Source: Haliotis cracherodii (Eukaryota). From it: a stretch of 64,000 nt of DNA. Made by a program: the position numbers and the translations under genes. The notes under the pieces were generated by a model. It was given only the letters and a program-made list of their open reading frames with translations. It was not told where the DNA came from and made no database searches. Numbering within the stretch: the first letter of the stretch is position 1; each line of letters begins with the position of its first letter. This document shows positions 4,372-61,950 of the stretch, one piece after another. The stretch lies in contig NW_027266343.1 in NCBI RefSeq assembly GCF_022045235.1, positions 51,680,134 to 51,744,133 of the forward strand, written 5' to 3'.

Positions 4372-4420
4372 CGAATGAATGAATGAACGAATGAATGAAT
4401 GAATGAATGAATGAATGAAT
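4372..4420. repeat. (GAAT)n microsatellite next to the SINE head
   Basis: gaatgaatgaacgaatgaatgaatgaatgaatgaatgaat. Confidence 0.9.
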
Positions 4421-9558: not shown

Positions 9559-9595
9559 GTATGCCTTCTCCAACCTATTGTTCAGAAATAACTTA

Positions 9596-14235: not shown

Positions 14236-15426
14236 GGAAATGAAAAAAAACTTTTTTCGATCTCAGATTTTAAATAAATGCAGTTAATATACAAAATATA
14301 TTAATATTCAAACAACTAAATGAGTACTTATTGGGCCTTGGCACAAATACAGCGTATCAAAGGTTTTTATGTCTTTTTACACGTAAAAGTGTGTAAAAAT
14401 ATGAACAAAACAGACGATTGTGAAACTGAGCATAACCAGGTGTTAGTAGATCAAGGTGAATGTCCATGACCTATGACACCTTGACGACAGGTGAAAACAT
14501 GTGCTTGAAACCCACGTGCATGTGATTTGTCAGAGGTTATTGATTTGTGAGTGGCATTGTGGGATAGTGAATCATCGTCAAAATATCAGAACGTAAAAGT
14601 AACATATTCCCTTCTCAAACAACAACTTACATGTCATTATTATTATGTACATAAACATAGCTGTTATTGTTATTGTTGTTTGGATAACTTTTTTTCCCAG
14701 GCTAATTTGCATAATGCCTATAGCCTGTTTCTGCCATGTCAATTTGGACTTAGTTTTATTTTTGAATGTTGAAAGTGCCTACAAATTACCTCCTGTAAAG
14801 TACATTTTGTATCGAGCACTGAGATAAAACTAGCAAATCCAGACTAGTACTGTTTCAGTTGTTTTGTTATTTCGTATTTACATCTACATAATGCTTTGTG
14901 TCGATTATTAAATCCAGCAAAACAGTTTTTTTTCATTTCCAAGAGTACTTTAGGGACCTATTCTGACCTATTCTGACTTGGAATCTCCAGGTGGCAATGA
15001 GCTGTTCAGTGATTGTGAGCAGATATACTTTATTCGACGTTGAGCTCAGTGCACTCTCAAAATTGGAAATTGTGGGCTCTTATTAGAATATAATTTTGGT
15101 GAAAGTGTTGAAAGATCGTAAATTTTCGTGGTTTACGCTGACAGCCTGAAATGATACAATAGAAAAGTGTGTGCGTATTATACATGACAGATATATTTTT
15201 CCAGAATTTAATTGCCCTTAATTAAGGGTGCATAAAACACGTGAGTGCGTATTAAACACGAATAAATAAGTCTTGTGAAAATGGATCACTCAAAAGGGTG
15301 CTAATTGGGATTGTTCACTAGCCAATATATCAGCAAATATCAGAGTGGGCTTTTATTAGAGCAGGGCGCTTATTACGTCGAATACAGTATGTTGTTAGTT
15401 AGTTCCTATATTTCTCTGTGTTGCAG

Positions 15427-16213
15427 GTATGGTGTGAGAGCCATCGATGAATACAAAGAGAACCTGAAGACCCTGTTCCGGCGGTTCAAGGAGGTGCTGC
15501 CTGCTGACTGTCTGGTCATCTGGAACACCACTCTTCCCATTTCAAAGAATGCAAGGGGAGGTTTCATTATTCCTGAGATTGAATTCATGAACTCCACTCT
15601 GCGTTTGGACATCCTGGAAGCCAACTATTATGCAGCCAAGGTCGTGGTTGAAAACGACTTCGATGTCCTTGATCTGCATTACTTCCTGCGTTATCAGCTT
15701 CACCGTCGTGCCGATGACGGCATACACTGGGACATGACGGCTCACCGGCGCATGACCAACCTGCTGCTAACTCACATCTCGGATGCCTGGGGCTTTCTTC
15801 TCCCTGGTAACGTCCAGAAAAACCAGGAAAAGAACCCAGAGGTATTCCGATTTGGAAGTAACACCATTCCTTCCCGAGCTTTGAACAGGCAGGAACAAGG
15901 TCTTCGGTCCCAACGTCGCCCACTCAATCTTGACGTGAACCGTATGTTGAAGGACATCAACCCCATGAACATCAACCGCGGCACTCTGAACAGACAGATA
16001 ATGGACACCAACAGGAAGCTGAGAAACGATTGTGGGTACAGCCGCAGCATGGAGGACAACAGCTACGCGACAGACCTTGGATCCAGGGACAACTTCCAGT
16101 GGCAGCCGTACAGCAACAACAACTTCGAACAAACGGCTCGGCATGTGGACTTCAACCGTTGTCGGTACCAACCTTACAATGGTGTACAGAGGCGCCGGAT
16201 CAGGCGGCAGTGA
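15427..16213 (+). CDS. PCED1: PCED1-like terminal coding exon: (R)YGVRAIDEYKENLKTLFRRFKEVLPADCLVIWNTTLPISKNARGGFIIPEIEF...DFDVLDLHYFLRYQLHRRADDGIHWDMTAHRRMTNLLLTHISDAWGF..., followed by an Asn/Arg/Gln-rich C-terminal tail of about 140 aa; stop TGA at 16211-16213
   Basis: The acceptor is ttgcag|g with phase 2 in. The junction codon ag+g gives Arg, which reproduces the ...SRYG... motif. Conserved motifs are present: FDVLDLHF, DG(I/V)HW (the catalytic Asp/His of an SGNH hydrolase), and LLLTH(I/V)ADAWG. Confidence 0.85.
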
Positions 16214-18089: not shown

Positions 18090-19650
18090 TTCTTTCTCTT
18101 TCTCTTTCTAGCTTTTTCTCTTTACACATCACTTCTTGTCTTCACACATCACTTCTGGTCTTCACGCAACACGTCTGTCCCACTTCACTCATCACTTCTG
18201 TCCCAGTTCACACAACACTTCTGTCCCACTTCACACATCACTTCTGTCCCACTTCACACATCACTTCTGTCCCACTTCACACAACACTTCTATCCCACTT
18301 CACACAACACTTCTGTCCCACTTCACACATCACTTCTGTCCCACTTCACACAACACTTCTGTCCCAGTTCACACATCACTTCTGACCCACTTCACACAAC
18401 ACTTCTGTCCCACTTCACACAACACTTCTGTCCCACTTCACACATCACTTCTTGTCTTCACACATCACTTCTGGTCTTCACGCAACACGTCTGTCCCACT
18501 TCACTCATCACTTCTGTCCCAGTTCACACAACACTTCTGTCCCACTTCACACATCACTTCTGTCCCACTTCACACATCACTTCTGTCCCACTTCACACAA
18601 CACTTCTGTCCCAGTTCACACATCACGTCTGTCCCACTTCACACATCACTTCTGTCCCACTTCACACAACACTTCTGTCCCACTTCACACAACACTTCTG
18701 TCCCACTTCACACATCACTTCTGTCCCACTTCACACAACACTTCTGTCCCACTTCACACAACACTTCTGTCCCACTTCACACAACACTTCTGTCCCACTT
18801 CACTCATCACTTCTGTCCCACTTCACACATCACTTCTGTCCTACTTCACTCATCACTTCTGTCCCACTTCACACAACACTTCTGCCCCACTTCACACAAC
18901 ACTTCTGCCCTTACTTCACACAACACTTCTGCCCCACTTCACACAACACTTCTGTCCCACTTCACTCATCACGTCTGTCCCACTTCACACATCACTTCTC
19001 TCCCACTTCACACATCACTTCTGTCCCACTTCACACATCACTTCTGTCCCACTTCACACATCACTTCTGTCCCACTTCACACATCACTTCTGTCCCACTT
19101 CACACAACACGTCTGTCCCACTTCACACAACACTTCTGTCCCACTTCACACATCACTTCTGGTCTACACACATCACTTCTGTCCCACTTCACTCATCACT
19201 TCTGTCCCACTTCACACATCACTTCTGTCCCACTTCACACAACACTTCTGTCCCACTTCACACAACATTTCTGTCCCACTTCACACAACACTTCTGTCCC
19301 AGTTCACACATCACTTCTTTCCCACTTCACACATCACTTCTGTCCCACTTCACACAACACTTCTGTCCCACCTCACACATCACTTCTGTCCCACTTCACA
19401 CAACACTTCTGTCCCACTTCACTCATCACTTCTGTCCCACTTCACACATCACTTCTGTCCCACTTCACACATCACTTCTGTCCCACTTCACACATCACTT
19501 CTGTCCCACTTCACACAACACTTCTGTCCCACTGTATACAACACTTCTGCCCCACTTCACACAACACTTCTGTCCCAGTACACATCACTTCTGTCCCACT
19601 CCACACATCACTTCTGACCCGTTTCTCACATCACTTCTGGCTCACTAATG
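18090..19650. repeat. Satellite with a 23-bp unit (CACTTCACACAWCACTTCTGTCC), about 65 copies, with a higher-order duplication of about 315 bp
   Basis: Perfect periodicity. The block 18126-18440 repeats at 18441-18790. The ORF-track 493-aa and 398-aa His-rich 'proteins' are repeat artefacts. Confidence 0.9.
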
Positions 19651-28449: not shown

Positions 28450-29600
28450 GCAATTACTGAAGTGTAGTGCACGTGTTTTTGTGTGAAAGTGATTTTGGAA
28501 GTAAAATCATTATTCGCGTTTTTTTAAAATTGCACGTGAACAATCGCGAGAAAAACTGCAAAGTTTATCTCTTAGAGATGCAGTATGACGAAAAAACACC
28601 AATGCCCAGGTTAACACAAGAACAGCGTGAGAGGGCTATAGGAATGCAACACAGTCGCATGTTGCAAGAACATTCAACTGCTCCCGTAATACCGTTGTCA
28701 ACTTGGTCCAGCGATTGGGAGTAACAGGTCGCACATCAGACAGGCCAAGAACAGACCCGTGAAGACCCATGAAGATCTCTACCTACGCTCATTGCACCTG
28801 CGTAATCGATTCCTACCTGTGACGTCATCGGCAGCGAATGCGTTGGGTCGTGTGGTCAGCAGGCAGACAATAGCCAGAAGACAAAGGGCAGCAGGGATCA
28901 GAGCCTATAGACCTTACAGAGGGCAACTGTTGACAAATGAACATCGTCGTCGAAGACTGCGATGGGCGCAAACAGTTAGGCGTTGGCAACGACGTGATTG
29001 GCAGCGTGTCCTCTTCACTGACGAGAGTAGGTTCTGTATGTTCCATTCTGATGGCAGACACCATGTGTATCGTCGTGGAGGCGAACTTACTGCTCGTTGT
29101 TGTGTCGAAGAGGTCGTACCCTTCGGTGGTATGAGTGTCATGGTGTGGGGTGGCATTTGTGCTGATGAGAGGACGCCATTGGTCATCATTAACGGTAACT
29201 TGAATGACGTACGCTACAGGGATGAGATTTTACGCGTTGTTGTGCTTCCATTTCTTCGTCAACAACCACAGGGTATTGTGTTCCAGTATGACAATGCTAG
29301 GCCACATACTGTTAACATTGTGCAAAACTTTCAACAATTCCCATGTGTTGCCCTGGCCAGTTCGTTCACCAGCCCTTAATCCCATAGAACACCTTTGGGA
29401 TTTCATGGACAGGCAAATTCGACGACGACAACAACCTCCAACCACCAGGAATGAACTCATCCAGGCCCTCCACGAAGAATGACGACGCATCCCACGTGAC
29501 GTCATCAGGCGATTGACAAATTCAGCTCGTAGGAGAGTGTTTGCCTGCCTTCAAGCCAATGGAGGTCACACACGCTACTAGGGTGACACAAACCCCATCT
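28450..29600 (+). mobile_element. Tc1-like DD34E transposase element, frame-shifted pseudogene
   Basis: The translation pieces are MPRLTQEQRERAIGM..., NCSRNTVVNLVQRLGVTGRTSDRPR..., ...QRRDWQRVLFTDESRFCMFHSDGRHHVYRRGGE...GGMSVMVWGGI...LNDVRYRDEIL...FQYDNARPHT... and ...LPWPVRSPALNPIEHLWDFMDRQIRRR.... The DDE signature is spread across three frames. Confidence 0.85.
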
Positions 29601-30469: not shown

Positions 30470-30720
30470 CTAAGACATGTGTTAAATTATTAGTGGTGTA
30501 GGCGTGTATATATTAGGGTATACTACATCAATTATCAGTGATGTAGGCGTGTATATATTGGAGTATACTATATCAATTATAAGCAGTGTAGGGGTGTATA
30601 TATTTGGGAATGCTTTATCAATTATCAGTGGTGTAGGGGTGTATATATTGGGGTATGGTATATCAATTATCAGTGGTGTAGGCGTGTATCTATTTTGGTA
30701 TGCTATATCAATTCTGTCTC
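30470..30720. repeat. 45-bp satellite array of about 5 units
   Basis: agtggtgtaggcgtgtatatattagggtatactacatcaattatc... repeated. Confidence 0.85.
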
Positions 30721-33119: not shown

Positions 33120-34350
33120 TTGTCTGGCCTATAAGCATTTATATATATTAGGGTATGTTGTATCAAATATCAGCGGTGTAGGTATGTATATATTAGGTTA
33201 TTCTATATCAATTATCAGGGGTGTAGGAATGTTTATATTATGGTATTCTATTTGAATTATCACTGATGTATGCATGTTTATATTAGGGTATCCTATGTCA
33301 AATATCAGGGGTGTAGGAATGTATATATTAGGGTATGCTATGCAGTGTTAGAGGCGTATATATAGTAGGGTATGCTATATTAATTATCTGTGGTGTGGGC
33401 GTGTATATATTGGGGTATGCTATGCAGTGTCGTAGGCGTATATATACATAAAGGTATGATATATCAATTATCAGTGGTATAGGCGTGTATATATTAGGGT
33501 ATGCTATATCAATTATCAGTGGTGTAGGCGGGTTTATAATTATGTATATATTAGGTTTTGTAATATCAAATATTAGGTGTGTAGGCATGTATATATTAGA
33601 GTATGCTATGCAGTGTTAGAGGCGTATATATAGTAGGGTATGCTATATCAATTATCTGTGGTGTGGGCGTGTATATATTGGGGTATGCTATGCAGTGTTG
33701 TAGGCGTATATATACATAAAGGTATGATATATCAATTATCAGTGGTATAGGCGTGTATATATTAGGGTATGCTATATCAATTATCAGTGGTGTAGGCGGG
33801 TATATAATTATGTATATATTAGGTTTTGTAATATCAAATATTAGGTTGTAGGCATATATATATTAGAGTATGCCATGCAGTGTTAGAGGCGTATATATAG
33901 TAGGGTATGCTATATCAATTATCAGTGGTGTAGGCGGGTATATAATTAAGTATATATTAGGTTTTGTAATATCAATTATTAGGTTTGTAGGCATGTATAT
34001 ATTAGGGTATGCTATGCAGTGTTGTAGGCGTATATATATTAGGAAATGCTATATCCATTATCAGTTGTGTTGACTTGAATACATTTATATATGCAATTTC
34101 AATTATCAGTTGTGTAGGCATGTATATATCACGTTATATAATAGGGTATGCTGTATCAATTATCAAGGGTGTAGGCGTGTAGATATTAGGCTGTCATATA
34201 TCAATTATTAGTGGTGTAGGCTTGTATATATTAGGGTATGCTAAATCAATTATATGCGGTGTAGGCGTGGCGTGTATATATTAGGGTATGCTATACCACT
34301 TATTAGTGGTGTAGGCGTGTCTATATTAGGGTATGCTATATCAATTATCA
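33120..34350. repeat. 45-bp satellite, main array of about 27 units, with partly diverged units
   Basis: The long run of ...attagggtatgctatatcaattatcagtggtgtaggcgtgtatat... is visible across 33120-34350. Confidence 0.9.
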
Positions 34351-34351
34351 G

Positions 34352-34543
34352 TCATTCCTTATGTCTTAAATTCATGACAGGTTCTTTGTCTCTTTGAAAC
34401 TGTAAACTCCTTCCCTCAAATTTCACATAGGTGTTATCAATAAGGAAGTCCAGCATTTCACATTTCGTTCTCATGACGTTTGCTTTCAATTGCACTTTTT
34501 CGAAACTTTGAACATAGAGATGTAAACATATCGTTGGTAACAA
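34352..34543 (-). mobile_element. Retroelement reverse-transcriptase fragment
   Basis: The minus-strand peptide ...KCEMLDFLIDNTYVKFEGRSLQFQ... has the same ETLDFLIDN..V.F motif as 52128-52319. I recall this as lying just upstream of the G.P.G..APLLADLFL RT motif in invertebrate retroelements. Confidence 0.45.
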
Positions 34544-35052
34544 CGTTTTGTAACAGATGCCCCATGGATCAAGAAATGCATTTTGGCGTCCGGATTTTCA
34601 CAATTATTTTCCTTCAAACACACATTCATTATCCCGAGGAAAAAGTTGGTTATTATCGAATAAGCAAGCATGTTTTACACACTTTATGTGATTATTGTGA
34701 GACCTTATATCTTCTGTTCTTGTCCCCCATTACAGGGTCATGCCGAAGGTCACAAAATTGCATGATAACAAATACAGGATGAAAATATTTGCATGAAAGA
34801 AAATAATTTTATTCGGACACGAAACATTTCAAAACTGGAATTTCAAATTAGGTCAATGGTTATTATTCAAAACCAACTTTCATATCGTGACTGAGTGTTT
34901 AGTAAGTACATAGCTGTTACATAGCAGCGTAGGTTTACCTTAAGTTAATTTGTCCGACCTTGTGAAACCCTGTTCGTGAACATCTGGTGCTGTCCCTCAT
35001 TTTTATATTATTTTCACGACCATTTCGTCATTTACACCAAATGGAATCTGGG

Positions 35053-35328
35053 GGCACGGGTGGCCAAGTCGTCTAAGGCGCCGCGATTCGCTGTGCAGAG
35101 TTGCGTCCCTTGGGTACGTCAGAAACCTATGATTGTGGGTTCGAATCCCGGTTCGCCCCGATTATGTTTCTAGATTTGTCAGCACCATACCCGTGCTCGT
35201 GGGTTTCACCGAAGTGGTAAACGTCTGAAACCTGCATCACTTCGGGCTTTCCTCCCACATTAAGCTGACACGCCGCGATATAACTGGAATACTGTTAAAA
35301 GCGGCGTAAAACCCAACTCACTCGCCAA
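35053..35328 (+). mobile_element. SINE family A copy with intact target-site duplication
   Basis: The full unit is flanked by CCAAATGGAATCTG (5') and CCAAAATGGAATCTG (3'). Confidence 0.85.
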
Positions 35329-37289
35329 AATGGAATCTGTTTCTCCAGAAAGTTGAGACTGATTATTCTCTGGCATTGACGTTTCATATTTGGTTCATAC
35401 TTACTCCCTCAACTCTAGGAATATATCAAGTCCTATATCAAGTAAACTATCAACATGAACTGTTAATGTTGTTAACAACATATTTTATTAATTACGTAAG
35501 TATTTCGGATTTCTACCTTCAATGGATAGCCCAGTAATAGACAGTAATAAAGAAAAGCCGCATTGATTTTGAAACTTGAAGAAAGTGACATAACATTGAC
35601 TTTGGAGTTAAAGTTCTGTGTAAACGTTGGCTATGTAAATTGTGAGAAGGTACGTTAGACACTACTTGTCAACATATCAACATAACTATGACGTTTTCAT
35701 TAGTTTGTTCCTTACAGACACTGTACTCACTAATGACAAAAGAAACGAACATGTTGTAAGTGTAGAAAGGTTTATTGACAAAACAATGCCCCTACACTTT
35801 TTTTGCATTCTGTAATTCTCGGATAACGTGGTTTCCGATATCAGCTCATCCTGAAAATATAAGGCGAATTCAGATTAGCAAATGAATTACTTCATTCACC
35901 CAAACGCACATACACATACAGGTACAGACAAAGTCATACACGAGATCGCAAACACCAAACTTTAAACGCTGGCATATAATTGACTCTAGTAGGATCCATC
36001 ACATGGACACGGAAGTTGTATGTCTGTTACTTGAATTTGTTCATACTTGAATAGTTTCATATCTTAAGTAATAACAATGCTTTGATAAAAGTTGACAATA
36101 TCTTGTAGATCAAATATCGCTGGAACCTTGAACTGTTTTGTGCAAATAATCACTCGCTAACAATTACTATACATTTAATTTGCCACTTTCAAACAAAGGA
36201 TGAACAAATAGCTTGTCCCATACAGTATACAAAAACACAGTTACACTGAAGGGAAGAAACGTCTTGGCTCAGGGCGTTTTACTGGAATCAACAAAACATA
36301 ACATACCGTCATCGAATCCCGCTCATGTGCAGCTGTGATATGAAAACCAGAAAATATGCATCTGAATTACAATTTAACGTTTAACGAAAGAGTCGGTAAA
36401 TTATATAAGCGGTCTTCTCCTCTAAACACATCTGACACATCTAATTGTATAAACTGATTTTTTTGATAACCCTTATTCGAAATTATTAAGTGGATATTTT
36501 TGACGGATATTAAGATTGGACTATTTACAATCACAATTCAGTCATACAAAGCAAGCTTTTAAGCTGTTTGGAAGTGCAATAGATGTAACAAGAAAGATTA
36601 TAATGTTCAACTCTATGTTCAATTAGTAATTAATTACTTGGTCGTTGTTGTTGCTGGATGTGTTATAAAGGAAATGCGTCAGTTACTAAGCCATTTTAAC
36701 AATTCATACCAGAATGTTGGATTACACGCAATAGACGGGCATGAAGAAGGAGTCGACATGGTGTATGTTAGCGATCCAACAAAAGTAAATGATGTAGCAT
36801 TGTAGATCTCAATATCCCTGAAAGAAGAAATCTCCATTTAGTCACCTTCAATCTACCCGATTGAAGAAACTGAGGAAAGTAGGTCAACATGTGGACTGTG
36901 CAAATGATACTGATTCCTCAAATTAATGTTATGTTATATAACTTATTCCAACGCTCAAAACAGTCAACAACAAATTGAATGAATGCACCCTGATAACCAA
37001 AGGCGCATCTTAGTTCGCCTTGGGGAGCTTATCGTGAGTACAATCGACTTAAACAATTGGATGCAGCTTCTCCAAGGTTCACCCTGACCTCTAAGATACA
37101 TGTATGTCCAACAGTTTGACAGTACATGCCAAGCCTGACACCAAGATGCCTCCTTCCCAGCTACCTCTCTCATATCCAATCTGAAATCTAGTTCATTACC
37201 AACGCAACCATACTGGTATGGTGAGGTTCCTTCTAAGAATATCTAGCAGTTACGTTCCAATCCAGAACGTCTGCCTCTGACTCAACGAA

Positions 37290-38050
37290 CTAAGACACCC
37301 ATCACCCCCTTTAACTAAAAGTATATCATGTGGCGTCCCTCACCTCCTTTAACTACAAGTATATCACGTGGCGTCCCTCACCCCCTTTAACTACAAGTAT
37401 ATCACGTGGCGTCCCTCACCCCCTTTAACTACAAGTATATCATGTGGCGTCCCTCACCCCCTTTAACTACAAGTATATCATGTGACGTCCCTCACCCCCT
37501 TTAACTACAAGTATATCATGTGGCGTCCCTCACCCCCTTTAACTACAAGTATATCATGTGGCGTCCCTCACCCCCTTTAACTACAAGTATATCATGTGGC
37601 GTCCCTCACCCCCTTTAACTACAAGTATATCATGTGGCGTCCCTCACTCCCTTTAACTACAAGTATATCTTCTGGCGTCTCTCAACCCCCTTTAACTACA
37701 AGTATATCATGTGGCGTCCCTCACCCCCTTTAACTACAAGTATGTCTTGTGGCGTCCCTCACCCCTTTTAACTACAAGTATATCTTGTGGCGTCCCTCAC
37801 CCCCTTTAACTACAAGTATATCATGTGGCGTCCATCACCCCCTTTAACTAAAAGTATATCACGTGGCGTCCCTCACCCCCTTTAACTACAAGTATATCAT
37901 GTGGCGTCCCTCACCCCCTTTAACTACAAGTTTATCTTGTGGCGTCCCTTACCCCCTTTAACTACAAGTATATCATGTGGCGTCCCTTACCCCTTTTAAC
38001 TACAAGTATATCATGTGGCGTCCCTCACCCCCTTTAACTACAAGTATAAC
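37290..38050. repeat. Satellite with a 38-bp unit (CCCCCTTTAACTACAAGTATATCATGTGGCGTCCCTCA), about 20 copies
   Basis: A period of 38 was measured between successive CCCCCTTTAA starts (37381 and 37419). Confidence 0.9.
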
Positions 38051-38417
38051 ATGTGGCTACCATCAGCAAAAGATCCAGATATAAAAAGGCACAGGAACAG
38101 GATGCAAGGCCGCATGTTCAGACTTAAAACACAATTCAATTTTTATATAATATACTTACTTTCAGTTAATTATTTTTCACAAATTATGGGATAGAAACCA
38201 ACTCTGACCGAAGAACTCACTCCTATCTTTTAATTATCAAGTCACATGATGTAAAAAGGGCTCCGCACAATGTACTGATATTTACAGTGTGCAAAGACTT
38301 AAAATTCTCCACAAGACTGACATTGGTTCAACATTTACAGATGAATTACCAACAAATGCAAATCTAAAGAATAATAAGATGCCAACAATGCATTTTTCTT
38401 GTTTTGAAGTAAGAAAG

Positions 38418-38476: not shown

Positions 38477-38637
38477 TCACGCATCATCTTTGTTTGCGAC
38501 GTAGATGAGGGAATCACAGGGGCTGACTTTAATTGAACCACAGCAATCGTCGTTTGGCTTTTTCAGCTGTTTGTATATTTCCTCTGCAGGATCATAGACG
38601 TACAGGCCACCGGGTTCATCACAAAACACTATTCTTC
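38477..38637 (-). CDS. Novel secreted protein gene, exon 6 (terminal): (G)RIVFCDEPGGLYVYDPAEEIYKQLKKPNDDCCGSIKVSPCDSLIYVANKDDA*
   Basis: The acceptor is ctctcatacag|ga with phase 1 in. The frame is open to the TGA and an AATAAA follows downstream. Confidence 0.6.
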
Positions 38638-38642
38638 CTGTA

Positions 38643-38900
38643 TGAGAGAGTGAGTGAGTGAGTGAAATGGATTTAGCACCGCTAAAAACAGTATTCCAGC
38701 TATATCACGGCGTGTCACCTTGTTATTGGGAGAAAGCCCGAAGTGATGCAGGTCTAAGACGTTTATCACTTTGGTGAAACCCATGAGCAAGGGTATGGTG
38801 CTGACAAACATTATACATTGAAACATAATCAGAGCGGACCGGGATTCGAACTCAATTTTATAGCATGCCTAAGGGACACTACTCTGCACCGTGTCCCCTG
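38643..38900 (-). mobile_element. SINE family A copy 1 of a tandem dimer, with an internal deletion in the head. Its tail abuts the exon-6 acceptor
   Basis: The + strand reads gtgagtgagtgagtgaaatgg...cagtattccagctatatcacggcgtgtcacc...ccgggattcgaactc...ctgcaccgtgtcccctgtgtatcagag. Confidence 0.75.
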
Positions 38901-39200
38901 TGTATCAGAGTGAGTGAGTGAGTTGGGTTTTACGCCGCTTTCAACAGTATTCAAGTTATATCGCGGCATGTCAGCTTAATGTGGGAGGAAAGCCCGAAGT
39001 GATGCAGGTCTCAGACGTTTACCACATCAGTAAAACTCACGAGCACGGGGGTGGTGCTAACGAACCTAGAAACATAATCGGGGCGAACAGGGATTCGAAC
39101 CCATAATCATAGGTTTCTGGCCTGCTGAGGGGACGCAACTCTGCACAGCGAATCGCTGCGCCTTTGACGACTTGGACACCCGTGCCACCTCCCTGTGTAT
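38901..39200 (-). mobile_element. SINE family A copy 2 of the tandem dimer, full-length
   Basis: tgagtgagtgagtgagttgggttttacgccgctttcaacagtattcaagttatatcgcggcatgtcagc...gggattcgaacccataatcataggtttctgg...cttggacacccgtgccacctccctgtgtatcagag. The same 13-bp flank CTGTGTATCAGAG follows both copies. Confidence 0.8.
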
Positions 39201-39906
39201 CAGAGAAATGTAGAATAAATATATGAACCTGATTCACCTCAAAACTCTATTCTACCTGTATCAGATACATATATAGTAGCGTGTCTCCTGTAACCGTGTG
39301 TGGGTTACCAGGGTCAAGTTTGAGCAGCAATATGCTGGTTAGCATAGTACAGAACAGTCAATTAACACAATACAACTCACATATAATTTTGCTATGCTAT
39401 GTAATTGATTTAAATACATACTAGGCAAATATAAATGTGTATACGTACACACCTATCATATATATTCATGTAAATAATTACGTTGTTTTGCACTATTTAC
39501 AATCTCAAATATATCAACACGAGTGGATAAAAGTGGAAAAATTCCAAGGCTTGCCGTGGAAATTTGCCACTGTTATCATCGAGTGTTGATATATTTGATA
39601 TCAAAAGACAAGAGGGATTTTATTTATCATCCAACACCATTTTTCCAACTTTTTCAATTTGTAGACAGTAATTAGCAGTGTCTTCAGTGTAAAAAGTACT
39701 GCTAACAGCTTCAGTAGGAGAGCCATTAGTGATGTTATTTGATTGTGACGTCATGGTAAACAATAACCAGTGAAGTCACAATGGTCTGCAAAGCATTGTG
39801 ATGTAATTTCATTGCAGCGCTATCTACAGATCTCACCCAAGCGATATCTCCTGTGGGAGCAAGTTTTGGATGATAAAATATAATCAATTGTATTAATTTC
39901 ACCTAC

Positions 39907-40025
39907 CATCTTCGAGAACTACAAACTCGAGAGGCGGCTCTGAAAACTTCAGGACTTGTTCCCAGTCACCGATGCCGTTGAGTGGTTTTCGAATGATTTC
40001 CTGACCATCACTCATGTACAGGTAA
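39907..40025 (-). CDS. Novel secreted protein gene, exon 5: (G)YLYMSDGQEIIRKPLNGIGDWEQVLKFSEPPLEFVVLED, phase 2 in and phase 1 out
   Basis: The acceptor is tttttgctgcag|t and the donor is gatg|gtaggt. Confidence 0.6.
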
Positions 40026-40783
40026 CTGCAGCAAAAACAATATTGTTTCATATATTGTTTAGTAGTTTCGTTGACTTGATCCATTTTCTACCCCTCATTA
40101 TACTTAACGGTTTTAACGATTAAAGAATACACAATAAGAACACCAGCCATAAACTATTCTTTGAACATAAATGTAAATATTACAAAACGTCAACCCCCTG
40201 TCAGCTCTCCGTTACACCGTCACAACCATATATCTTGTGAATCCTGTCCTGTTCTGTTACATATAGTTTGAAACACATTTAGTTTGCATATAATACAATG
40301 ACAATATATACAGGATACAGGATGCAGTCGCCTGTATGTGTATATCTGCACTCACAACTCCCACATTATCATTATCTTCTTCGATTTTCAAGGTCACGTA
40401 ATTAAATTTATGTCCCTCTTAGTTTGAAATATACCATACTTTGATAAATTTAGGTCTGAATCCGTTGACAAATTTCCTCATGTGAGTGTGTATATTATAT
40501 ATCAAAGTCTCCCCCGATGACATAATAAAGGATTATAGACAGCAGGTAGTTTTACCAATATCATCGACAAAACTCGTTCTATTATTATAAGAAATCTCTG
40601 CTAAAATCAGAGTCCATTGTATGATTTCGACCATATAACAAGCATTTCTTAATGAATCACTATCAAATAGTGACAATACTATCATACTATCACGATAGCC
40701 ATGGTAACTGCGTACAGTTAAAGATAACGTGTACTTTCACAATACCTTGCTATTCTGCTGTCAGATGTACATACCCGCCACAA

Positions 40784-40949
40784 ATGTAAATGTTGCCAAT
40801 ATCGCCTTCATATAAGCAGAAAGGGACGAAATTATCCCCAAATCTATCGACCGTATAGATGCCATTTAGAGAATCGTCGTCGAAGGTCATGGCGACATAA
40901 ACGAGATTCTCAGCAGTACTGAAGGTAATGCCATTTGCGACTCCTGTCT
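40784..40949 (-). CDS. Novel secreted protein gene, exon 4: (E)TGVANGITFSTAENLVYVAMTFDDDSLNGIYTVDRFGDNFVPFCLYEGDIGNIYICG, phase 1 in and phase 2 out
   Basis: The acceptor is gggacctccag|ag and the donor is ggcgg|gtatgt. An alternative acceptor 7 nt downstream (acag|gagtc) is also in frame. Confidence 0.55.
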
Positions 40950-41019
40950 CTGGAGGTCCCGACAACAAATCAATGACAAATTAAGACCTATAAGGATTAA
41001 AAGCGTCAGCAATCGTCAC

Positions 41020-41880
41020 ATGAAGGGATGTATACGTGCATATATCTCATGTAAAAGTTTAACAGGGTAGTTGTAAGAATATGACAGGGTGTATACGTGC
41101 ATATATCTCATGTAAAAGTTTAACAGGGTAGTTGTAAGAATATGACAGGATGTATACGTGCATAGATCTCATGTAAAAGTTTAACAGGGTAGTTGTAAGA
41201 ATATGACAGGGTGTATACGTGCACAGATCTCATGTAAAAGTTTAACAGGGTAGTTGTAAGAATATGACAGGGTGTATACGTGCACAGATCTCATGTAAAA
41301 GTTTAACAGGGTAGTTGTAAGAATATGACAGGGTGTATACGTGCATAGATCTCATGTAAAAGTTTAACAGGGTAGTTGTAAGAATATGACAGGGTGTATA
41401 CGTGCACAGATCTCATGTAAAAGTTTAACAGGGTAGTTGTAAGAATATGACAGGGTGTATACGTGCATATATCTCATGTAAAAGTTTAACAGGGTAGTTG
41501 TAAGAATATGAGAGGGTGTATACGTGCATATATCTCATGTAAAAGTTTAACAGGATAGTTGTAAGAATATGACAGGGTGTATACGTGCACAGATCTCATG
41601 TAAAAGTTTAACAGGGTAGTTGTAAGAATATGACAGGGTGTATACGTGCATATATCTCATGTAAAAGTTTAACAGGGTAGTTGTAAGAATATGACAGGGT
41701 GTATACGTGCACAGATCTCATGTAAAAGTTTAACAGGGTAGTTGTAAGAATATGACAGGGTGTATACGTGCATATATCTCATGTAAAAGTTTAACAGGGT
41801 AGTTGTAAGAATATGACAGGGTGTATACGTGCATATATCTCATGTAAAAGTTTAACAGGATAGTTGTAAGAATATGACAG
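41020..41880. repeat. Satellite with a 61-bp unit (GTGTATACGTGCATATATCTCATGTAAAAGTTTAACAGGGTAGTTGTAAGAATATGACAGG), about 14 copies, inside intron 3 of the secreted-protein gene
   Basis: A period of 61 was measured (41031 to 41092). Copies alternate between the variants catatatc and cacagatc. Confidence 0.9.
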
Positions 41881-42191
41881 GATAAAAGCATTATCTTTCC
41901 AATTACATGTCAGAATTAGAAGTGAATAATTTCATACGATGTTACAGTTGATTGGGACAAAATGTCATTTCCTAAGATCATTAGGTGCCAGAAAGGAGGA
42001 GGGGAGATCCGAGGAGTACGTTTCCATATTAAATTTCCAAGTGTTAGAAAGACTCGACACATTGTCATACACTCAAATCATAAGTGGCTTTGACATGGGG
42101 ATGCATTGCAGGTCCGAACAGATGCATTTTCTCAACAAACAAATTGATAAGAGATTTTGAACGAATGTACATGAGACGGTCATTAACGTAC

Positions 42192-42422
42192 CACGATTCT
42201 GTGCTAAAATATAGTCCTTTCCTTTGGGCATGGGTTTACATATGAGAATAAAGAAATTGTTTCTGTAGTAATCTAATGCATAGTCGGAGTTATCGAAGGG
42301 GCTTTCCAGTGTCAATCCGTCAACACTAAAACGTGTTGTGAAGCCATTTTGAATGAAACCATTTGGATCCACCACGGCAACATCAGTTCCATTACACGAA
42401 GCGACGAACACCGCACCGGTAC
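42192..42422 (-). CDS. Novel secreted protein gene, exon 3: (R)TGAVFVASCNGTDVAVVDPNGFIQNGFTTRFSVDGLTLESPFDNSDYALDYYRNNFFILICKPMPKGKDYILAQNR, phase 1 in and phase 1 out
   Basis: The acceptor is tatatacttgaag|gt and the donor is cgtg|gtacgt. The alternative acceptor hits a stop codon. Confidence 0.6.
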
Positions 42423-43102
42423 CTTCAAGTATATAGCAACAACTTAAAGTTAACGCGACAGGGATTACATTGCGCATACAATTTTGAAACTTGATTGGAA
42501 GTAACGATTGTAAGACCATGCCCGAGTTAACAAATGGCAAATTATCTCATTAGTTAATATTTATTTGGTGTAATGACTATATTTGTTTTAACGATATTAC
42601 ACAGATTCCAGGGATCTTGTATCTTTTCCTGTCCTCTCGGGCAATCAACTGAGCCACCACGCTCAAGGTCCAGAAAAGATTCCCCAAAGCACTACACATT
42701 AAAGATTACATATTTCTATATACTTTCTAATGTCATGATTATTATATCATGAATAAAATGCTCTTGAATTGCAAAGGGCGTGTGATAGAAAGTTTAACTA
42801 CCCAGTTTTAAAACACGTGTCATGCTTTTACTTATAACTGCTGAAGTTCTCTGCACTGGTACCCTCGCCGTGTAAAACTGCATCTTTGTACTAACAGTGA
42901 CCATTTATTGTTGACTTGGTTTAATGGTGATGTTTTAATGGCCTGAATCAAACTGGCCGAATCTGCCATCTAATCTCGGTCTTAGCTCTCTGTGGACCAA
43001 GTTTTAAGTCCAATCAACAGTTAATCAGTGAATTTATCGCTTCTGGGTATATGATGTAATTGCAATGCAAGAAAATATTGTTCCTGTTTCTAAAAGACTT
43101 AC

Positions 43103-43216
43103 GGTCTGGGCAGTCATCTGGAGCGGCGGTCTTGGCGGTCTGGACTGCAGTAGAGAAAGCTTGAAGAGCAGCCAAGAAGGTGTTGACTTTTGTTTCGAAA
43201 CACCTGGGGGGGTCAC
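43103..43216 (-). CDS. Novel secreted protein gene, exon 2: (S)DPPRCFETKVNTFLAALQAFSTAVQTAKTAAPDDCPD, phase 1 in and phase 1 out
   Basis: The acceptor is atcttgcag|gt and the donor is gacc|gtaagt. The frame is fixed by the phase from exon 1 and the frame needed by exon 3. Confidence 0.6.
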
Positions 43217-43814
43217 CTGCAAGATGATAGATTTATTCTAAAATGATACTTGATTACGGAAACCCTAAATCATTACAGAATGTACAGACGCTTTACTACG
43301 TGATGTAGCATGTGAATTGTATATCGTTGCCAAATACCTGAGATTATGTCATGTCAGAACAGGTGTGATGCACGTGATGTCGGAGTAGTGATTTAATATA
43401 CGCGTAACATATATGCTGTCATTGCCACTGTAAGCAAAACAATAAAAACAACCAAATAGCCAAATGAACTTTACCAATGGAAACTTTTTTATTCTAGGTC
43501 TACCAGAGATTATTTGTGGACTCTTTTGTCAGTAGAGATATCTTATGATTATGTACATTATTTTGTCACTTAAATTATATCATTGTTGTGAAGAAGGAAT
43601 TTGGCATAGAAAACTTAGATTGTGTTTTGTGACTTTACAAATAGTTATACTTATACCACATAAATATAACATGCACAGGTTTAGATTGGATTTCGTCCGG
43701 ATGATTGTTTAATAAATAGCCTAATTGACTGCTGGTGTAGATACAGATGTGCTGAAGGTGAGTAGAGACTCATTACAGATAAATGAGTGGCATGTGAAGG
43801 ACAACGCCAATGTT

Positions 43815-44048
43815 TGAGTGAGTGAGTGAGTGAGTTGAGTTTAACGCCTCTTTTAACGTTATTCCAGTTATTTCACGGCGTGTCAGCTTAGTGCGGGAGG
43901 AAAGCCCGAAATGATGCAGGTCTCAAACCTAGAAACATAATCGGGGCGAACCGGGATTCGAACCCACAATCATAGGTTTCTGGCGTGCCCAAGGGACATA
44001 ACTCTGCACAGCGACTCGCGGCGCCTTAGACGACTGGGCCACCCGTGC
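43815..44048 (-). mobile_element. SINE family A copy with an internal deletion, in intron 1 of the secreted-protein gene
   Basis: gtgagtgagtgagtgagttgagtttaacgcctcttttaacgttattccagttatttcacggcgtgtcagcttagtgcgggaggaaagcccgaaatgatgcaggtctcaaacctagaaacataatcggggcgaaccgggattcgaaccc...gactgggccacccgtgca. Confidence 0.8.
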
Positions 44049-44847
44049 AATGTCTCCCCACGAAACTGTAGGATAAAAACTACTTGTCCTGCAGGTAAAG
44101 GTGTCCAACCCCTTTCCATATTCATAAGAAACCACCGCAAAAAAGCAGAGTCGCATGTACGAATCCGACTATTTCATGAGCATGTGTACACTATCAAATA
44201 GTAATGATAACAGGTGTTACCGGACAGGTGAGTGTATCCTAACCCAAAGGAAGCACCCATCACAAACACTTGCAAAGGCAAGTCAAGTACTCACCTGTAA
44301 AAACATGGAAATATGGTACAATTCAAAATAGGGAACTGCATCAGACACATTTGTGTCATTGTTGGAAATGTTATCTAGAAGTCTACAATATAACTTTTTG
44401 GAACTTCTACAAATGCCTTGATGGTTGTAACTCTTATCAAAGGCTGGAGCTGCCTGAATATTGATCCACATAGATGGAATATTTACTTTTGGAAAGTTGA
44501 AATCATCCCTCTTGCTACACAACTGTGGATCGTAAGGCATAGATTTATGTATAAAACAGATGATGTGGTTTCATTGGTATATTTCATTTTAAAACTCAGG
44601 TAAATCTGGGAATTCATTGTTGAAATTTGTCACTGAGATGGAATAGAGTTGACTGTAAGTATCTGCCATTTCATTGCAGTACCCCCACCGCACCCCAAAC
44701 AGCAACCCAACCCTCCCCCCCCCCCCCTTTTTTTTCATTTATTCATGTTAATTGTCCACGAATTTACATGGCCCTGTACATTGCCTGGTGGACTGGCATA
44801 CCAGGGTTTATATTTGGGTTTGAGTTGCTTAAAGCAATAATACTCAT

Positions 44848-46450
44848 CTAATTATTCAGTACACATTTATTTTTATCTGCAAGATTAACATTGTTATACT
44901 GTAGTACTTTGTATTGTATTGCTAGTTCTCTTTTAAATATTCTAAAAAGGCAGTCGGTTTCAGTTACTTTACATTTGTACACAATATACTTTGATAGCAG
45001 TAGTAAATAATTCATCAAAGTACACTCCTCTGTGCCTCCTTCTATACCATACAATACAATATCTCTGTAAGTATTATAAATCTGATTATGTACATTAACT
45101 TTCGCCCATTTAAAGAATTCTATCCAAAAGGGTAATACATTTGAACAGTGAAACATGTAATGTCTAACAGTTTCTATACTACCACAATGTTCACATACAT
45201 TACTTTCTTTAATGTTAATTCTATTTAAATACTGATTACAAGGAATGATTGAGTGTAGAATTTTCAACTGCAGTTGCTTATACTTGTTTCCAATTCTCAT
45301 GTCCTTTACAAATATTTTCTATGTAAAAACATCTTCAATAGCAACTTTGAACACATTATAGATTGTATTATACCAAAATTTACTTTTACAAGGTGTGTCA
45401 GCAAGTCTGATTCCGTTAACTTCAGGATGTGGTTCAATTTTTATAGGACCCACGTTTTGGAAACTAAACATGTTCTGCCCTATTGCCTTCCTAATAGCAT
45501 TGATATACCTACTATATTTTCTTGGTGTTATGTCAATTCCATATTTCCTAGCAATTGTTTCGCGTTGAAAGAAATCCCCATTCTTTTTAAGTAATGCCTT
45601 ATATAAATAATGCCCGCATCTTTCCATTTCGCATCAAATATACTTTTTCGATTGATTAAGATATTTTTGTTATTCCAAATTATTTCATTATAGATGTCTT
45701 CTTCTCTTTGTGCAAAAAAGGTCTCCCACAAGGATACAATTTCTTTATAGAATAATGAGATTTTTAATTTATTTTAATTTGGAGACTTGGAAGTTACAGT
45801 TAAGTAAGAATTCAAGCGAACCAATGCTTTTAAAATAATGTGCAATAGGAAGTGTCCAGATCTTCTTAGAGAAATACTTGCCGAGCCAAACTAGTTTTAA
45901 CGCTGCGTTAAAGGTCCCAAAATCTAGACCATTAATGCTACCTTCTCCTTGTTTTTGGATTAACCGATTTCTTGATAATTTTTATGACTTGCTGTTCCAA
46001 ATAAAGGTAAACAGTTCTCTTTTGATTATTTTGATTATTTTTGGTGAAAAGGAAACACAACTTGCTTGATGGACTAACCTAGAAATTCCTTCAGATTTGC
46101 TTAAAAGACAACGTCCATATATTGTTAAATTTCTACTTTTCCAGATTTTAAAACGTCTTTTAATATTTTCTTAAGGTCTTTCAATATTTTCCTCGTGACA
46201 CACCGTATCAATAGCATCTATCATTACGCCAAGAAATTTATATCTATAAATTTTCTTTATGCCAAAAGGAGGAATAAAATTGTCTTTTCTAAGTGACATT
46301 ACGACTGATTTATCTAAATTCAGTTTTAAGCCGCTGTAGGCCCTTTGATTTAAATAAAATTCCAGGGTTTTCTTGACCGATTTTTTATCTCTCAGAATGA
46401 GAGCCGAATAATCTGCATAATATATTCCTTCTATTTCTTTTTCTCCAAAT
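44848..46450 (-). mobile_element. Non-LTR retrotransposon (LINE) ORF2 3' fragment: RT C-terminal part plus zf-RVT-like domain, 5'-truncated, in the sense orientation within intron 1 of the secreted-protein gene
   Basis: Minus-strand peptides: ...GIYYADYSALILRDKKSVKKTLEFYLNQRAYSGLKLNLDKSVVMSLRKD... (RT motifs near YxDD and N.DKS); ...FWYNTIYNVFKVAIEDVF...; and ...NVCEHCGSIETVRHYMFHCSNVLPFW... (Cys/His zinc-binding motif typical of RT-associated zinc fingers). Confidence 0.65.
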
Positions 46451-46593
46451 ATTAGGCCATTAATGTTTTGATCTTTTGACTTAGAAACCCAACCCTCCCA
46501 CTGCATCTCCCCAGCACACGAACACGCTTCCCACAGACAGAAAAGGTTTAATAAGTTGCATATAACCAAAGCAAAGCTCATTATGCTACTTAC

Positions 46594-46804
46594 TCAGGCA
46601 TGGACACTGTTCGGCGATGACGTCATAAACACAATCAAAGCCGTTAATAATGTTGGTGAGACTGTCGCAGAGGTCTTGAAGCTTCTGGTTCACCCGACCT
46701 GGTACTGGACACGCTGAAGATCTTCCGTTTTGCGTTCCGGCTGAAGCTTGTTGGGCGAGGAAGGCCAGGAGGAGACACGTGAAGTAGTTGGAGGAGAACA
46801 TCAT
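46594..46804 (-). CDS. Novel secreted protein gene, exon 1: MMFSSNYFTCLLLAFLAQQASAGTQNGRSSACPVPGRVNQKLQDLCDSLTNIINGFDCVYDVIAEQCPCL, phase 1 out
   Basis: The N-terminus has a hydrophobic h-region plus AXA (QQASA|G), which is a signal peptide. The donor is CTGA|GTAAGT. Confidence 0.65.
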
Positions 46805-50454: not shown

Positions 50455-50924
50455 ATATGCCAAGATTGTCAAGAAATCAGCGACACCAAGCCCTTGAACG
50501 ATTGCAAGCTGGACAAACCGCAAGTTGCCAATGCATTTCAAGTCCACGTAAGGACCATACACAGGCTCCAGCAACTGTACCAGACCGCCAACACTACAGA
50601 TGCCCGACCACGTAGTGGAAGACCAAGGGTCACCACCCGACGTCAGACTGTGCGACAGCATCTTCAAGTTCGCTTTGTTACTGCTGCGTAACTGCTCGAC
50701 AGACCATGGAGACACACCAGCGACACATTAGTGCGGATACCGTGCGTCGACGATTGACATGCAGACATCTCCACTGTCACAGGCCAAACCGAGGACCAAT
50801 TCTGACACCATGTCATCGCCGGGACCGTCTTCAGTGGGCAACACAGCACCAGCATTGGCGCCAGCAGCAGTGGAGAAGAGTCCTCTTCTCAGAAGAGAGC
50901 CATTACTGTATCTCAACAGCAGAT

Positions 50925-50968
<44 letters not shown>

Positions 50969-51500
50969 AAGAGAGAGTCTGGCGACGCCGTGGGGAACGT
51001 TATTCGGATGCTTGTGTTGTTGAGAGAGACTCGCGGGGTGGTCTGAGCATCGTGGTGTGGGGTGGAATTGAACTTGAACAGAGGGTCGGCCCTGTGGTCT
51101 TCCAGAACATCGGTCTAGGGAGAGGCAATGGTGTCCCAGCAGCTCGGTACATTGACCAAGCCTTGAGACCACACGCCATACCTCATTTGGCACGTCGCTG
51201 CAACCACGAGTTTCAGCATGATAACGCATGTGCCCACATTGCGAGAGCAACAAGATACTTCATCCAGCTGAATGGCATCAGAACCATGCTGTGGCCTGCC
51301 CTCAGTCCCGATTTAATTCCCATTGAGAATCTGTGGGACGAGATTCAAAGACGACTGAATGACGTCCGACCAAGGCCGACAACTACAGCTGAACTGCGTC
51401 ATTGGTTCCTCAGAGTGTGGGCTCAAGTGCCTATGGCCTTTATCAACCACCTCATCCATTCCATGTATCGACGTTGCACTGCACACAAGATACTGACTTT
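50455..51500 (+). mobile_element. Tc1-like transposase element, pseudogene, disrupted by frameshifts and an internal (GA)n microsatellite
   Basis: MPRLSRNQRHQALERLQAGQTA... (HTH), ...WRRVLFSEESHYCISTADGRER... (first D region), ...GGLSIVVWGGIELEQR...FQHDNACAHIARATRYF...WPALSPDLIPIENLWDEIQRRL... (DDE region). Confidence 0.85.
50925..50985. repeat. (GA)n microsatellite of about 30 units inside the Tc1 coding region
   Basis: gagagagagagagagagagagagagagagagagagagagcaagagagag. Confidence 0.95.
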
Positions 51501-52127
51501 TGTGATGCCATTTTCTCAGAGATTAGTGTTGTGTTTCACTTCAAGAACATTTGACACTTTAATTTCAACCTTGATGATCAGCTATGCCAAGTTTCATCTT
51601 TTTAATATGTCTCAAAGTATGTTTACAGTGTTTGGACAAATAAGGTTTCTCATATATCTATCCATGGTGACGTTTCTTTTGCGGTTCAGTATATAAACAA
51701 GTCTCACAACGTTCTTATTTCTTCATACAACGTTACAACGAAATGGCTAGACATGCTACGTGACGAGGGTCTGACACATTCATAACAGTATCCGGAAATA
51801 CATCGTGGCAGCATGCTGTGGCTCTAAGGATGATCTGAATAAAACCTACAAAAGCAATTTTGTACGACTCCGAATATATCATGCCCATGTGTTTATGACT
51901 CACTATAGTGATGATACCAGGTGTTCGCGTATCATACCTCACCGGTGGCACCTGTAAAACGGAAGTCAACCATCTTGTCATATGGTCATGTGGAAAGATT
52001 TTTATGACTCTGAATCGTTATGCACAGATCTAAATATGAAACATACGAGACAGCCTCACTGGTCTCCTTATTGTTAGTTGGTACGTTAGTGAAAGGGTAT
52101 TGTCCGTTTGACTGCTTTTGAACGATA

Positions 52128-60974: not shown

Positions 60975-61950
60975 CAACATGCCAAGATTAACAGAAGTGC
61001 AACGAAACAACGTCATAGGCCGCTTGCAGGCAGGGGAATCCCGATCAGCTGTAGCCAGGGATTTCAAGGTAGCTCCCAGCACCATCACAAGGCTATGGGA
61101 TCGGTTTCAACAGCTTGGGTCAACACGTGATCGGCAAAGGTCGGGACGGCCAAGTGTAACCACCCTCACCCAGATCGGTACATCCGACTGCTCCACCTAC
61201 GTGAAAGGACGACCACAGCCACCTCAACCGCATCCCAAATACCCGGACTGCGCAGAATCTCCGACCGTACGAAACCGTTTAAGAGCAGCAGGTCTACGAG
61301 CAAGACGTCATGTTCGACGCGTCATATTGAGTCGACAACATCGGTGTCGTCAATAGAGGGCATGGTCTCAACTACGATGGAGAGATGTCTGGTTTAGCAA
61401 CGAATAAAGATTTCTCCTCCGTCGAGGGGATGGAAGAGCACGGGTCTGCATACGTCGGGGAAAATGTTACGCCAGCATACAGGAAGTGGACAGGTTTGGT
61501 GGGGGTAGCGTAATGATGTGGGCGGCTATCTCTCATCATGGCATCATGACAGGTTTGGTCCATATCCAGGGCAATCGTAAGGCTCAACTATATATCAACG
61601 AAATTCTCCTACCACACGTCCTCACCAACTGGAGCCAACGGCAACGGTGTTTTCTAGCAGGACAACGCTCGACCGCATACAGCATGGATCACAAGAGCCT
61701 GTCTACACAACAAGAACGTTGATGTTCTCCCCTGGCCCTCCAGATCCCCGGATTTGAACCCGATAGAGCACCTGTGAGATGAATTGGATAGACGGCTACG
61801 CCGACGTCAACCACAATCCCAGACGCTGCAGCAGTTGGCTTTTGCGTTGCAGGCCGAGTGGGCTACCATTCCCAGGATGTGATTCGCATAATCGTGTCTT
61901 CCGTGGGCAGGAGATGTAAGCCCGCTATCGATTCCAACGGGGGACGTACG
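60975..61950 (+). mobile_element. Tc1-like transposase element, frame-shifted pseudogene
   Basis: MPRLTEVQRNNVIGRLQAGESRSAVARDFKVAPSTITRLWDRFQQLGSTRDRQRSGRP... (HTH), ...GGGSVMMWAAISHHG...YINEIL..., ...LPWPSRSPDLNPIEHL.DELDRRLRRR... in different frames. Confidence 0.85.

Follow-up and report, generated by a model that had tools for sequence, protein, structure and literature searches.

Three described classes of beta-propeller come closest to the protein considered here. YWTD propellers (LDL-receptor class B, as in nidogen G3, LDLR, LRP4 and LRP6) are extracellular, disulfide-containing protein-binding modules; propellers of the NHL/YVTN kind are represented by Brat, TRIM71, NHLRC2, the PknD sensor and prokaryotic YVTN proteins; and those of the SGL/SMP-30/gluconolactonase group have six blades. 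As regards mode of evolution, the nearest precedents are, from general knowledge, snake-venom PLA2, conotoxins and the abalone gamete-recognition proteins lysin, sp18 and VERL, all of them secreted and tandemly duplicated, with a coding segment that outpaces its adjacent introns. Haliotis, the abalone genus, is a classic taxon for the fast evolution of recognition proteins. Here we analyse a stretch of 64,000 nucleotides (nt) from Haliotis cracherodii (contig NW_027266343.1, positions 51,680,134 to 51,744,133 of the forward strand; hereafter the window), in which a preliminary description, made from the letters alone, had read an unannotated six-exon gene for a secreted protein of about 333 amino acids (aa) at positions 38477-46804. 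We find that 46804-36323 on the minus strand is a single intact protein-coding gene with eight coding exons. On balance, and with some reserve, we favour a reading in which this intact gene encodes an acidic, disulfide-rich six-bladed propeller that would serve as a secreted binding module, with blades 2 and 3 under diversifying selection.

An intact gene with eight coding exons

Positions given below are those in the window and, as the gene lies on the minus strand, its exons run from high to low numbers; slashes mark exon boundaries. The six minus-strand segments that had been chained together in the preliminary description (46804-46594, 43216-43103, 42422-42192, 40949-40775, 40025-39907 and 38637-38477) all exist, with a GT donor and an AG acceptor at every intron and phases of 1,1,1,2,1 that are borne out by joining and translation. 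Joined, they form an open frame of 1011 nt or 336 codons, both from the listing of open reading frames (ORFs) and from three-frame translation of the minus strand, and its translation begins like a signal peptide and contains the Cys-rich stretch and each of the motifs that were quoted from it. The argument that such a chain goes beyond chance had been built on three exon lengths that are not multiples of three. This count needs amending, as four of the six are not (211, 175, 119, 161), and the argument itself stands on other ground: the 336-aa product matches annotated Haliotis proteins with an expectation value (E) of 9e-133 and 100% query coverage, and its junctions coincide with those of three homologues.

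Where the preliminary description fell short is the 3' end. The TGA at 38479-38477, which it took for the stop codon, is intronic and part of a splice donor, being located inside the conserved GAT GAT GC/GTGAGT. Full-length homologues (349-408 aa) run about 38 residues beyond it, and tblastn finds the continuation, DIEIYNATSFTFVGSLTYTMSTPSSCPSIACNPTF, at 36816-36712 with 77-83% identity to the homologues, exon 7 beginning at 36817 right after ttcttctttcag. In addition, the last coding piece of the annotated H. rufescens protein is a micro-exon of 10 nt (cag/CTGTGCATAA), the equivalent of which in the window is micro-exon 8. Two more coding exons (36817-36710 and 36332-36323) are hence located outside the interval first noted, and the complete gene has coding exons of 211/114/231/175/119/157/108/10 nt with phases 1,1,1,2,1,2,2 and a product of 374 aa. 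What results is a corrected eight-exon, 374-aa model for a locus that a reading without homologues had cut off at a splice donor. Past the stop, a GT donor-like site (GACG/GTA) follows after 16 nt in the window (36306-36322, minus strand) and in the H. rufescens locus L001 (25240-25256), and after 13 nt in the H. asinina locus L002 (21851-21863). Micro-exon 8 may therefore be an internal exon, with an additional 3' exon of non-coding sequence beyond it.

Exon sets were rebuilt from the genomic loci of H. rufescens P0001 (L001), its tandem neighbour P0004 (L003) and H. asinina P0007 (L002). All three possess the eight coding exons with the same phases and with lengths that differ from those of the window by multiples of three only, and donor and acceptor positions agree junction by junction, except for the exon-4 acceptor (9 nt, in frame). 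At the 5' end, the start of exon 1, the sequence upstream of it and the donor CTGA/gtaagtag are kept in both H. rufescens copies; H. asinina retains the ATG, a gtaagt donor and similar upstream sequence. Besides the predicted signal peptide, exon 1 codes for the first helix and the QCPC motif. As for the exon-4 acceptor, the ancestral ttgttgtcAG/GG seen in H. rufescens reads ttgttgtcGG in the window, where a 6-nt insertion gives in-frame AGs 9 and 15 nt downstream of the old site. Our gene model takes the first of these (9 nt downstream), a choice inferred from the sequence; with the alternative AG, also in frame, exon 4 would begin at 40943.

H. asinina P0007, 47% identical to the window protein, is a paralogue sharing the eight-exon plan. 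The introns and flanks of the window gene are collinear with both H. rufescens loci (L001, L003) at 75-79% non-coding identity, with 15-20% of aligned intron positions differing from H. rufescens, and no second gene copy was found elsewhere in the 64-kb window. A single copy here, flanked by sequence collinear with the two H. rufescens loci, makes the window gene the co-orthologue of the H. rufescens tandem pair LOC124117311 / LOC124117298. Conservation of the frame at the orthologous locus, a check that the preliminary description had itself set for its gene, holds in that frame and splice sites are kept at the collinear H. rufescens locus. Compared to the coding sequence of P0001, the ratio of non-synonymous to synonymous divergence (dN/dS) is 0.41 overall, at a dS of 0.56, dropping to 0.04-0.25 for blades 1, 4 and 5; the overall ratio places the frame under purifying selection. 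Moreover, the window protein retains all 32 family-invariant columns and all 10 invariant Cys residues.

An abalone family with a predicted propeller fold

A database search with the 336-aa product matched 16 proteins (E 9e-133 to 7e-21) at 91-100% query coverage, except for two short matches, and protein and tblastn searches together return Haliotis homologues with exon-by-exon matches across the interval. When a profile of 14 homologues was run against 1.84 billion representative proteins, relatives with the full architecture were confined to H. rufescens, H. cracherodii, H. rubra and H. asinina, and all of them carry only the name 'uncharacterized protein'. Beyond Haliotis, the family profile reaches metagenomic NHL/YVTN propeller proteins (E 1e-14 to 1e-4), chiefly through blade 6 (LIYVAN..DIEIYN). 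The family is multigenic, partly tandem and detectable only in Haliotis. It is already predicted in public annotation yet undescribed, no paper on it having been found in the literature searched, and the window gene clearly belongs there. This agrees with the earlier proposal of a secreted, lineage-specific protein outside any named family: no Pfam or NCBIfam model is reached, the NCBIfam search having returned nothing meaningful.

With the rest of the family the window protein shares the predicted signal peptide, the QCPC helical hairpin, DCP(D/E)RTG, the predicted six-bladed propeller, the CPS..DPT..CC tail, the eight-exon plan with its phases and the collinear flanks; the motif framework of QCPC, DCPxRTG, VVDPNG, the CPS..P tail and the conserved Cys residues is likewise all there. 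Identity to the closest copies is 66-67%. The window protein differs from them in being 5 residues shorter, in ending CCT rather than CCA, in its shifted exon-4 acceptor and in blades 2-3, which are only 40-43% identical. Across the family, the closest H. rufescens/H. cracherodii protein pairs are only 76-84% identical. A third copy in H. rufescens L003 (34039-37292), downstream of LOC124117298, is inverted and tail-to-tail with P0004; it has detectable exons 2-5, a frameshift in exon 3, a Cys to Ser change in DCPDR and a distinct blade 2-3 sequence of its own, and is probably a pseudogene, judging from these lesions. Together, the low identity of cross-species pairs and this frameshifted, inverted third copy point to birth-and-death turnover of the copies.

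The mature window protein has a mass of 38.6 kDa, an isoelectric point (pI) of 4.16, 19 Cys residues and two N-x-S/T sequons; C106-C362 would be one candidate for a disulfide pairing. Acidity is uniform among all 23 family members examined (pI 4.05-4.37, Lys+Arg only 4-7%), even at about 25% identity. A cleavable signal peptide is predicted on the 374-aa product: on inspection, the N-terminus has the signal-peptide-like MMFSSNYFTCLLLAFLAQQASA, followed by G, and this is kept in the closest homologues. Hence, we infer that the protein is secreted.

To look at the fold, we turned to H. rufescens P0001 (67% identical to the window protein), which was modelled by AlphaFold2 from a 14-sequence alignment. 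The model has a mean predicted local distance difference test score (pLDDT) of 76.5; blocks of 10 residues in the propeller score 72-92, most of them above 80. It shows a signal helix and two long helices (residues 37-66 and 77-101) followed by 24 strands (residues 113-372). For P0001, the prediction accordingly comprises some 75 residues of Cys-bearing helical hairpin and a beta-propeller of about 260 residues, in which the 24 strands would form six four-stranded blades that close into a ring. Foldseek with this model agrees on the propeller fold, superposing it on YWTD, NHL and SGL propellers, and the likeness to SGL/NHL-type propellers that had been suspected from repeated strand motifs is in this way recovered at the level of the modelled structure. 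Judging from the order of the strands and from the (L/V)(Y/F)V(A) motif that recurs in them, the C-terminal strand from exon 7 would be the innermost strand of blade 1. If this strand does close blade 1, the six-exon product would be without half of blade 6 and without ring closure.

Comparison with the three described classes leaves the protein, as judged from sequence and model, a putative extracellular six-bladed propeller outside the YWTD, NHL and SGL sequence models. Structural similarity to the P0001 model is highest for the YWTD class, which is extracellular as our protein is predicted to be, and blade 4 (YLYMSDGQEIIRKPLNG) resembles a YWTD blade by eye, albeit not by any tool. Against membership of that class, however, identity in the superpositions is 13-17%, Ldl_recept_b (PF00058) gave no match in any family member scanned, and a helical hairpin precedes the propeller instead of an EGF domain following it; no EGF domain was found in the product, whose C-terminus is a 10-residue Cys tail. 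NHL/YVTN propellers are the sole non-Haliotis sequences that the profile reaches, but the likeness is at the level of single repeats, and the NHL repeat model PF01436 matched neither the window protein (E up to 10) nor nine homologues (E up to 1) nor 15 aligned members (E up to 0.1). With the SGL/SMP-30/gluconolactonase group the protein shares the six-bladed fold and one strand pair of the NG(I/L)xFS..LYVA type, which gives a weak match: Pfam SGL (PF08450) scores 16.2-16.4 bits (E 0.007-0.008) over 23 residues (NGITFSTAENLVYVA), below the curated cut-off of 26.3 bits, and no conserved metal-ligand set is evident. Searched by sequence, the PDB gave no match to the protein and only marginal WD40 matches (E 0.01) to the family profile.

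Hypervariable blades 2 and 3 and possible roles

Identity between the proteins of the tandem neighbours P0001 and P0004 is 97-100% from the signal peptide through the hairpin to blade 1, 89% for blades 4-6 and only 57% over residues 138-240, that is, blades 2-3. Among the four H. rufescens and H. cracherodii copies, the same residues show 53-62% identity as opposed to 86-100% elsewhere. In terms of nucleotide change between P0001 and P0004, dN and dS are 0.335 and 0.151 in exon 4, 0.148 and 0.110 in exon 3, and 0.093 and 0.067 over the whole gene, for which dN/dS is 1.38; introns 1-5 and 7 differ at 3.3-5.5% of aligned positions, where intron divergence, here and below, is taken from BLAST-alignable parts only and the comparison comprises three coding sequences. 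Non-synonymous change in exon 4 exceeds the change in introns 3 and 4 with an odds ratio of 6.7 (Fisher p 1.4e-14), and for exons 3 and 4 against introns 2-4 the p value is 6e-17. The window copy fits this pattern. Compared to H. rufescens, dN in exon 4 is 0.48 versus 15-20% in the introns (odds ratio 3.0, p 1.7e-6), and by blastn the introns align where exon 4 does not. In a three-way DNA alignment, near-identical intron flanks enclose a heavily substituted exon 4.

These findings may be accommodated by a model in which the protein is secreted and serves, outside the cell, to bind or recognise a partner rather than to catalyse a reaction. The conserved scaffold would be made up of blade 1 together with blades 4-6, and the hypervariable sector of blades 2-3, encoded by the 3' part of exon 3 and by exon 4. 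In that sector, amino-acid substitution appears to have run several times faster than total change in the flanking introns. Diversifying selection on a putative ligand-contact region may yield such a pattern, with the binding partner driving diversification, and new specificities may arise through tandem duplication and birth-and-death of copies. A ligand might come from a pathogen or a gamete, or else from the extracellular matrix or the shell. A 'lectin-like' or 'binding' label for the protein is a tentative one.

A bolder version of this model, which we put forward as a tentative possibility, is that of an abalone-specific, hypervariable propeller recognition system, immune or gamete-related, that combines a four-blade scaffold with a two-blade sector under positive selection and tandem birth-and-death. 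If true, this would be a new molluscan family of diversifying recognition proteins following a logic like that of FREPs or of lysin/VERL, on an unrelated fold. The comparison with snake-venom PLA2, conotoxins and lysin/sp18/VERL goes as far as their secretion, tandem duplication and intron-outpacing coding segments and, for the abalone proteins, the shared taxon; the fold, however, is unrelated, there is no sequence similarity and nothing ties the window gene to venom, sperm or egg. What is new here is blade 2-3 hypervariability in excess of the intron rate in a multigene family known solely from unnamed abalone predictions, which makes it a candidate family for work on molluscan immunity or reproductive isolation.

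Several of our own observations weigh against selection on a secreted binding module. Synonymous divergence in exons 3-4 is raised too (odds ratio 2.95 compared to introns, p 0.002), and dN/dS exceeds 1 in one paralogue pair only, where it is non-significant from coding sites alone. In place of selection, a local effect on mutation or ectopic conversion by paralogues outside our sample could be contributing and, given the raised synonymous divergence, the BLAST-limited intron figures and the three coding sequences, gene conversion is a possible contributor. Copying from known distant paralogues was tested, and each hypervariable segment is still closest to its own clade; that of P0004 is nearer to P0005 (45%) than those of the sister copies are (33-35%). 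Also, the variable positions span strands and loops on both faces of blades 2-3, so that no discrete binding face can be named. The fold was predicted for an H. rufescens homologue from a shallow alignment of 14 sequences rather than for the window protein, and secretion is read from inspection of the sequence alone. Finally, the ancestral exon-4 acceptor is lost in the window, and correct splicing depends on a putative downstream AG.

Among other explanations for the gene product, an acidic matrix or biomineralisation protein from the mantle, with its low pI serving to bind Ca2+ or carbonate surfaces and its variability due to relaxed constraint, would be consistent with the narrow range of low pI and low Lys+Arg content across the 23 members and with a predicted secreted, Cys-rich family from a single lineage. 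Secreted, Cys-rich and lineage-restricted is a profile typical of molluscan mantle secretome genes. Yet Asp/Glu-rich runs and low-complexity repeats are lacking and a compact globular fold is predicted, no link to a shell proteome or to mantle expression was found in the literature searched, and relaxed constraint cannot drive dN to 3-7 times intron divergence. To our minds, a matrix role is therefore rather unlikely.

The preliminary description had also offered a lactonase-like protein, and a secreted hydrolase of the SGL/SMP-30/paraoxonase/strictosidine-synthase type would hold a metal in the propeller's central tunnel. It is the weak PF08450 match over NGITFSTAENLVYVA that speaks for this option, but with 16 bits where the cut-off asks for 26.3, over 23 residues and in 1 of 15 family members, we see no support in it for a lactonase. 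Nor does the family alignment hold an invariant Glu/Asn/Asp/His set of the catalytic-metal kind, the invariant residues being mostly Cys, Gly, Pro and hydrophobic, and a propeller that is hypervariable over one third would make an atypical core for an enzyme. On this sequence evidence we consider an enzyme of the lactonase type unlikely, and a binding module is the reading that we keep.

Could the window copy be a recently inactivated pseudogene, in which loss of the exon-4 acceptor (gtcAG to gtcGG) blocks correct splicing and the frames have not yet decayed? The birth-and-death character of the family, with a frameshifted, inverted copy next to the H. rufescens pair, would suit this scenario. 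Nonetheless, the frame is uninterrupted in each of the eight exons, canonical splice sites stand at the conserved positions everywhere but at that acceptor, and the in-frame AGs 9 and 15 nt downstream that came with the 6-nt insertion sit behind a pyrimidine-rich tract. Together with the purifying selection described above (dN/dS 0.41 overall, and as low as 0.04-0.25 for blades 1, 4 and 5) and the retention of all 10 invariant Cys residues, this renders inactivation very unlikely. That the exon chain is a chance run of ORF fragments and no gene, for which no result speaks although the window is repeat-rich and many spurious ORFs fall in the interval, is rejected on account of homologues at E 9e-133, exon-by-exon tblastn matches, the same intron positions and phases in three loci and purifying selection, and has next to no probability left.

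Coordinates, repeats and other features of the window

Coordinates of the coding exons and of repeats in the introns of the propeller gene (window positions; an empty strand cell applies to tandem arrays)
Feature	Position	Strand	Details
Coding exon 1	46594..46804	-	211 nt, ends in phase 1; start codon 46804-46802
Signal peptide	46804-46739	-	MMFSSNYFTCLLLAFLAQQASA/G (slash, predicted cleavage site), predicted from inspection; within exon 1
Coding exon 2	43103..43216	-	114 nt; second helix of the N-terminal hairpin and DCPD motif; boundaries match L001, L003 and L002
Coding exon 3	42192..42422	-	231 nt; blade 1 (TGAVFVASC..VVDPNG, highly conserved) and blade 2
Coding exon 4	40775..40949	-	175 nt, ends in phase 2; blade 3; most variable exon
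Coding exon 5	39907..40025	-	119 nt; blade 4 (YLYMSDGQEIIRKPLNG); dN/dS compared to H. rufescens 0.15
Coding exon 6	38481..38637	-	157 nt, ends in phase 2 at GC/GTGAGT; blade 5 and first half of blade 6
Coding exon 7	36710..36817	-	108 nt; encodes DIEIYNATSFTFVGSLTYTMSTPSSCPSIACNPTF, second half of blade 6 and C-terminal strand
Micro-exon 8, coding part	36323..36332	-	10 nt, C-C-T-stop; cacag/CTGCACATGA
Minisatellite, intron 3	41020..41881		61 bp x 14 copies, 97% identity; source of a minus-strand ladder of 37-aa ORFs
Minisatellite, intron 6	37302..38057		38 bp x 20 copies, 94% identity
Degenerate retrotransposon remnants, intron 1	44848..46581	-	broken ORFs; weak RVT_1/zf-RVT matches (E 7e-5 and 7e-3), below Pfam cut-offs

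Within exon 3, the part downstream of about 42339 belongs to the hypervariable region. The 38-bp array of intron 6 has a counterpart at the same intron position in each of the two H. rufescens copies, that in L003 having grown to about 2.9 kb; the retrotransposon insertion is missing from H. rufescens intron 1 as far as the latter aligns. Downstream of the gene, 45-bp tandem repeat arrays (33142-34352 and 30485-30713) are collinear with a similar array past the H. rufescens orthologue (L001 30029-31388).

Away from the gene, a 23-bp unit (CTTCACACATCACTTCTGTCCCA) is repeated 66 times at 18140-19646, with a GC skew of -0.62 in the 18-20 kb bin, and this array creates repetitive pseudo-ORFs of 398 and 493 aa on the plus strand. 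Fragments of Tc1/mariner-type transposases are located on the plus strand at 28759-29379, 50923-51696 and 60979-61356, with Pfam matches to HTH_Tnp_Tc3_2 (E 1e-10 and, again, 5e-4), DDE_3 (E 3e-10) and HTH_28 (E 5e-6). Rfam found no RNA family in the window. At 15305-16213 on the plus strand, together with 9317-9733, there is a non-repetitive, protein-like ORF of 302 aa (..VIWNTTLPISKNARGG..DDGIHWDMTAHRRMTN..) with no Pfam match at E up to 0.01; judging from its sequence, this ORF could belong as an exon to a nearby gene on the plus strand. Another repeat, interspersed and about 270 bp long, is found at 35050-35322, 38648-39190, 43815-44048, 4089-4372 and 8880-9116, some copies lying in the introns of the propeller gene, and its copies are 75-95% identical to those in the H. 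rufescens loci.

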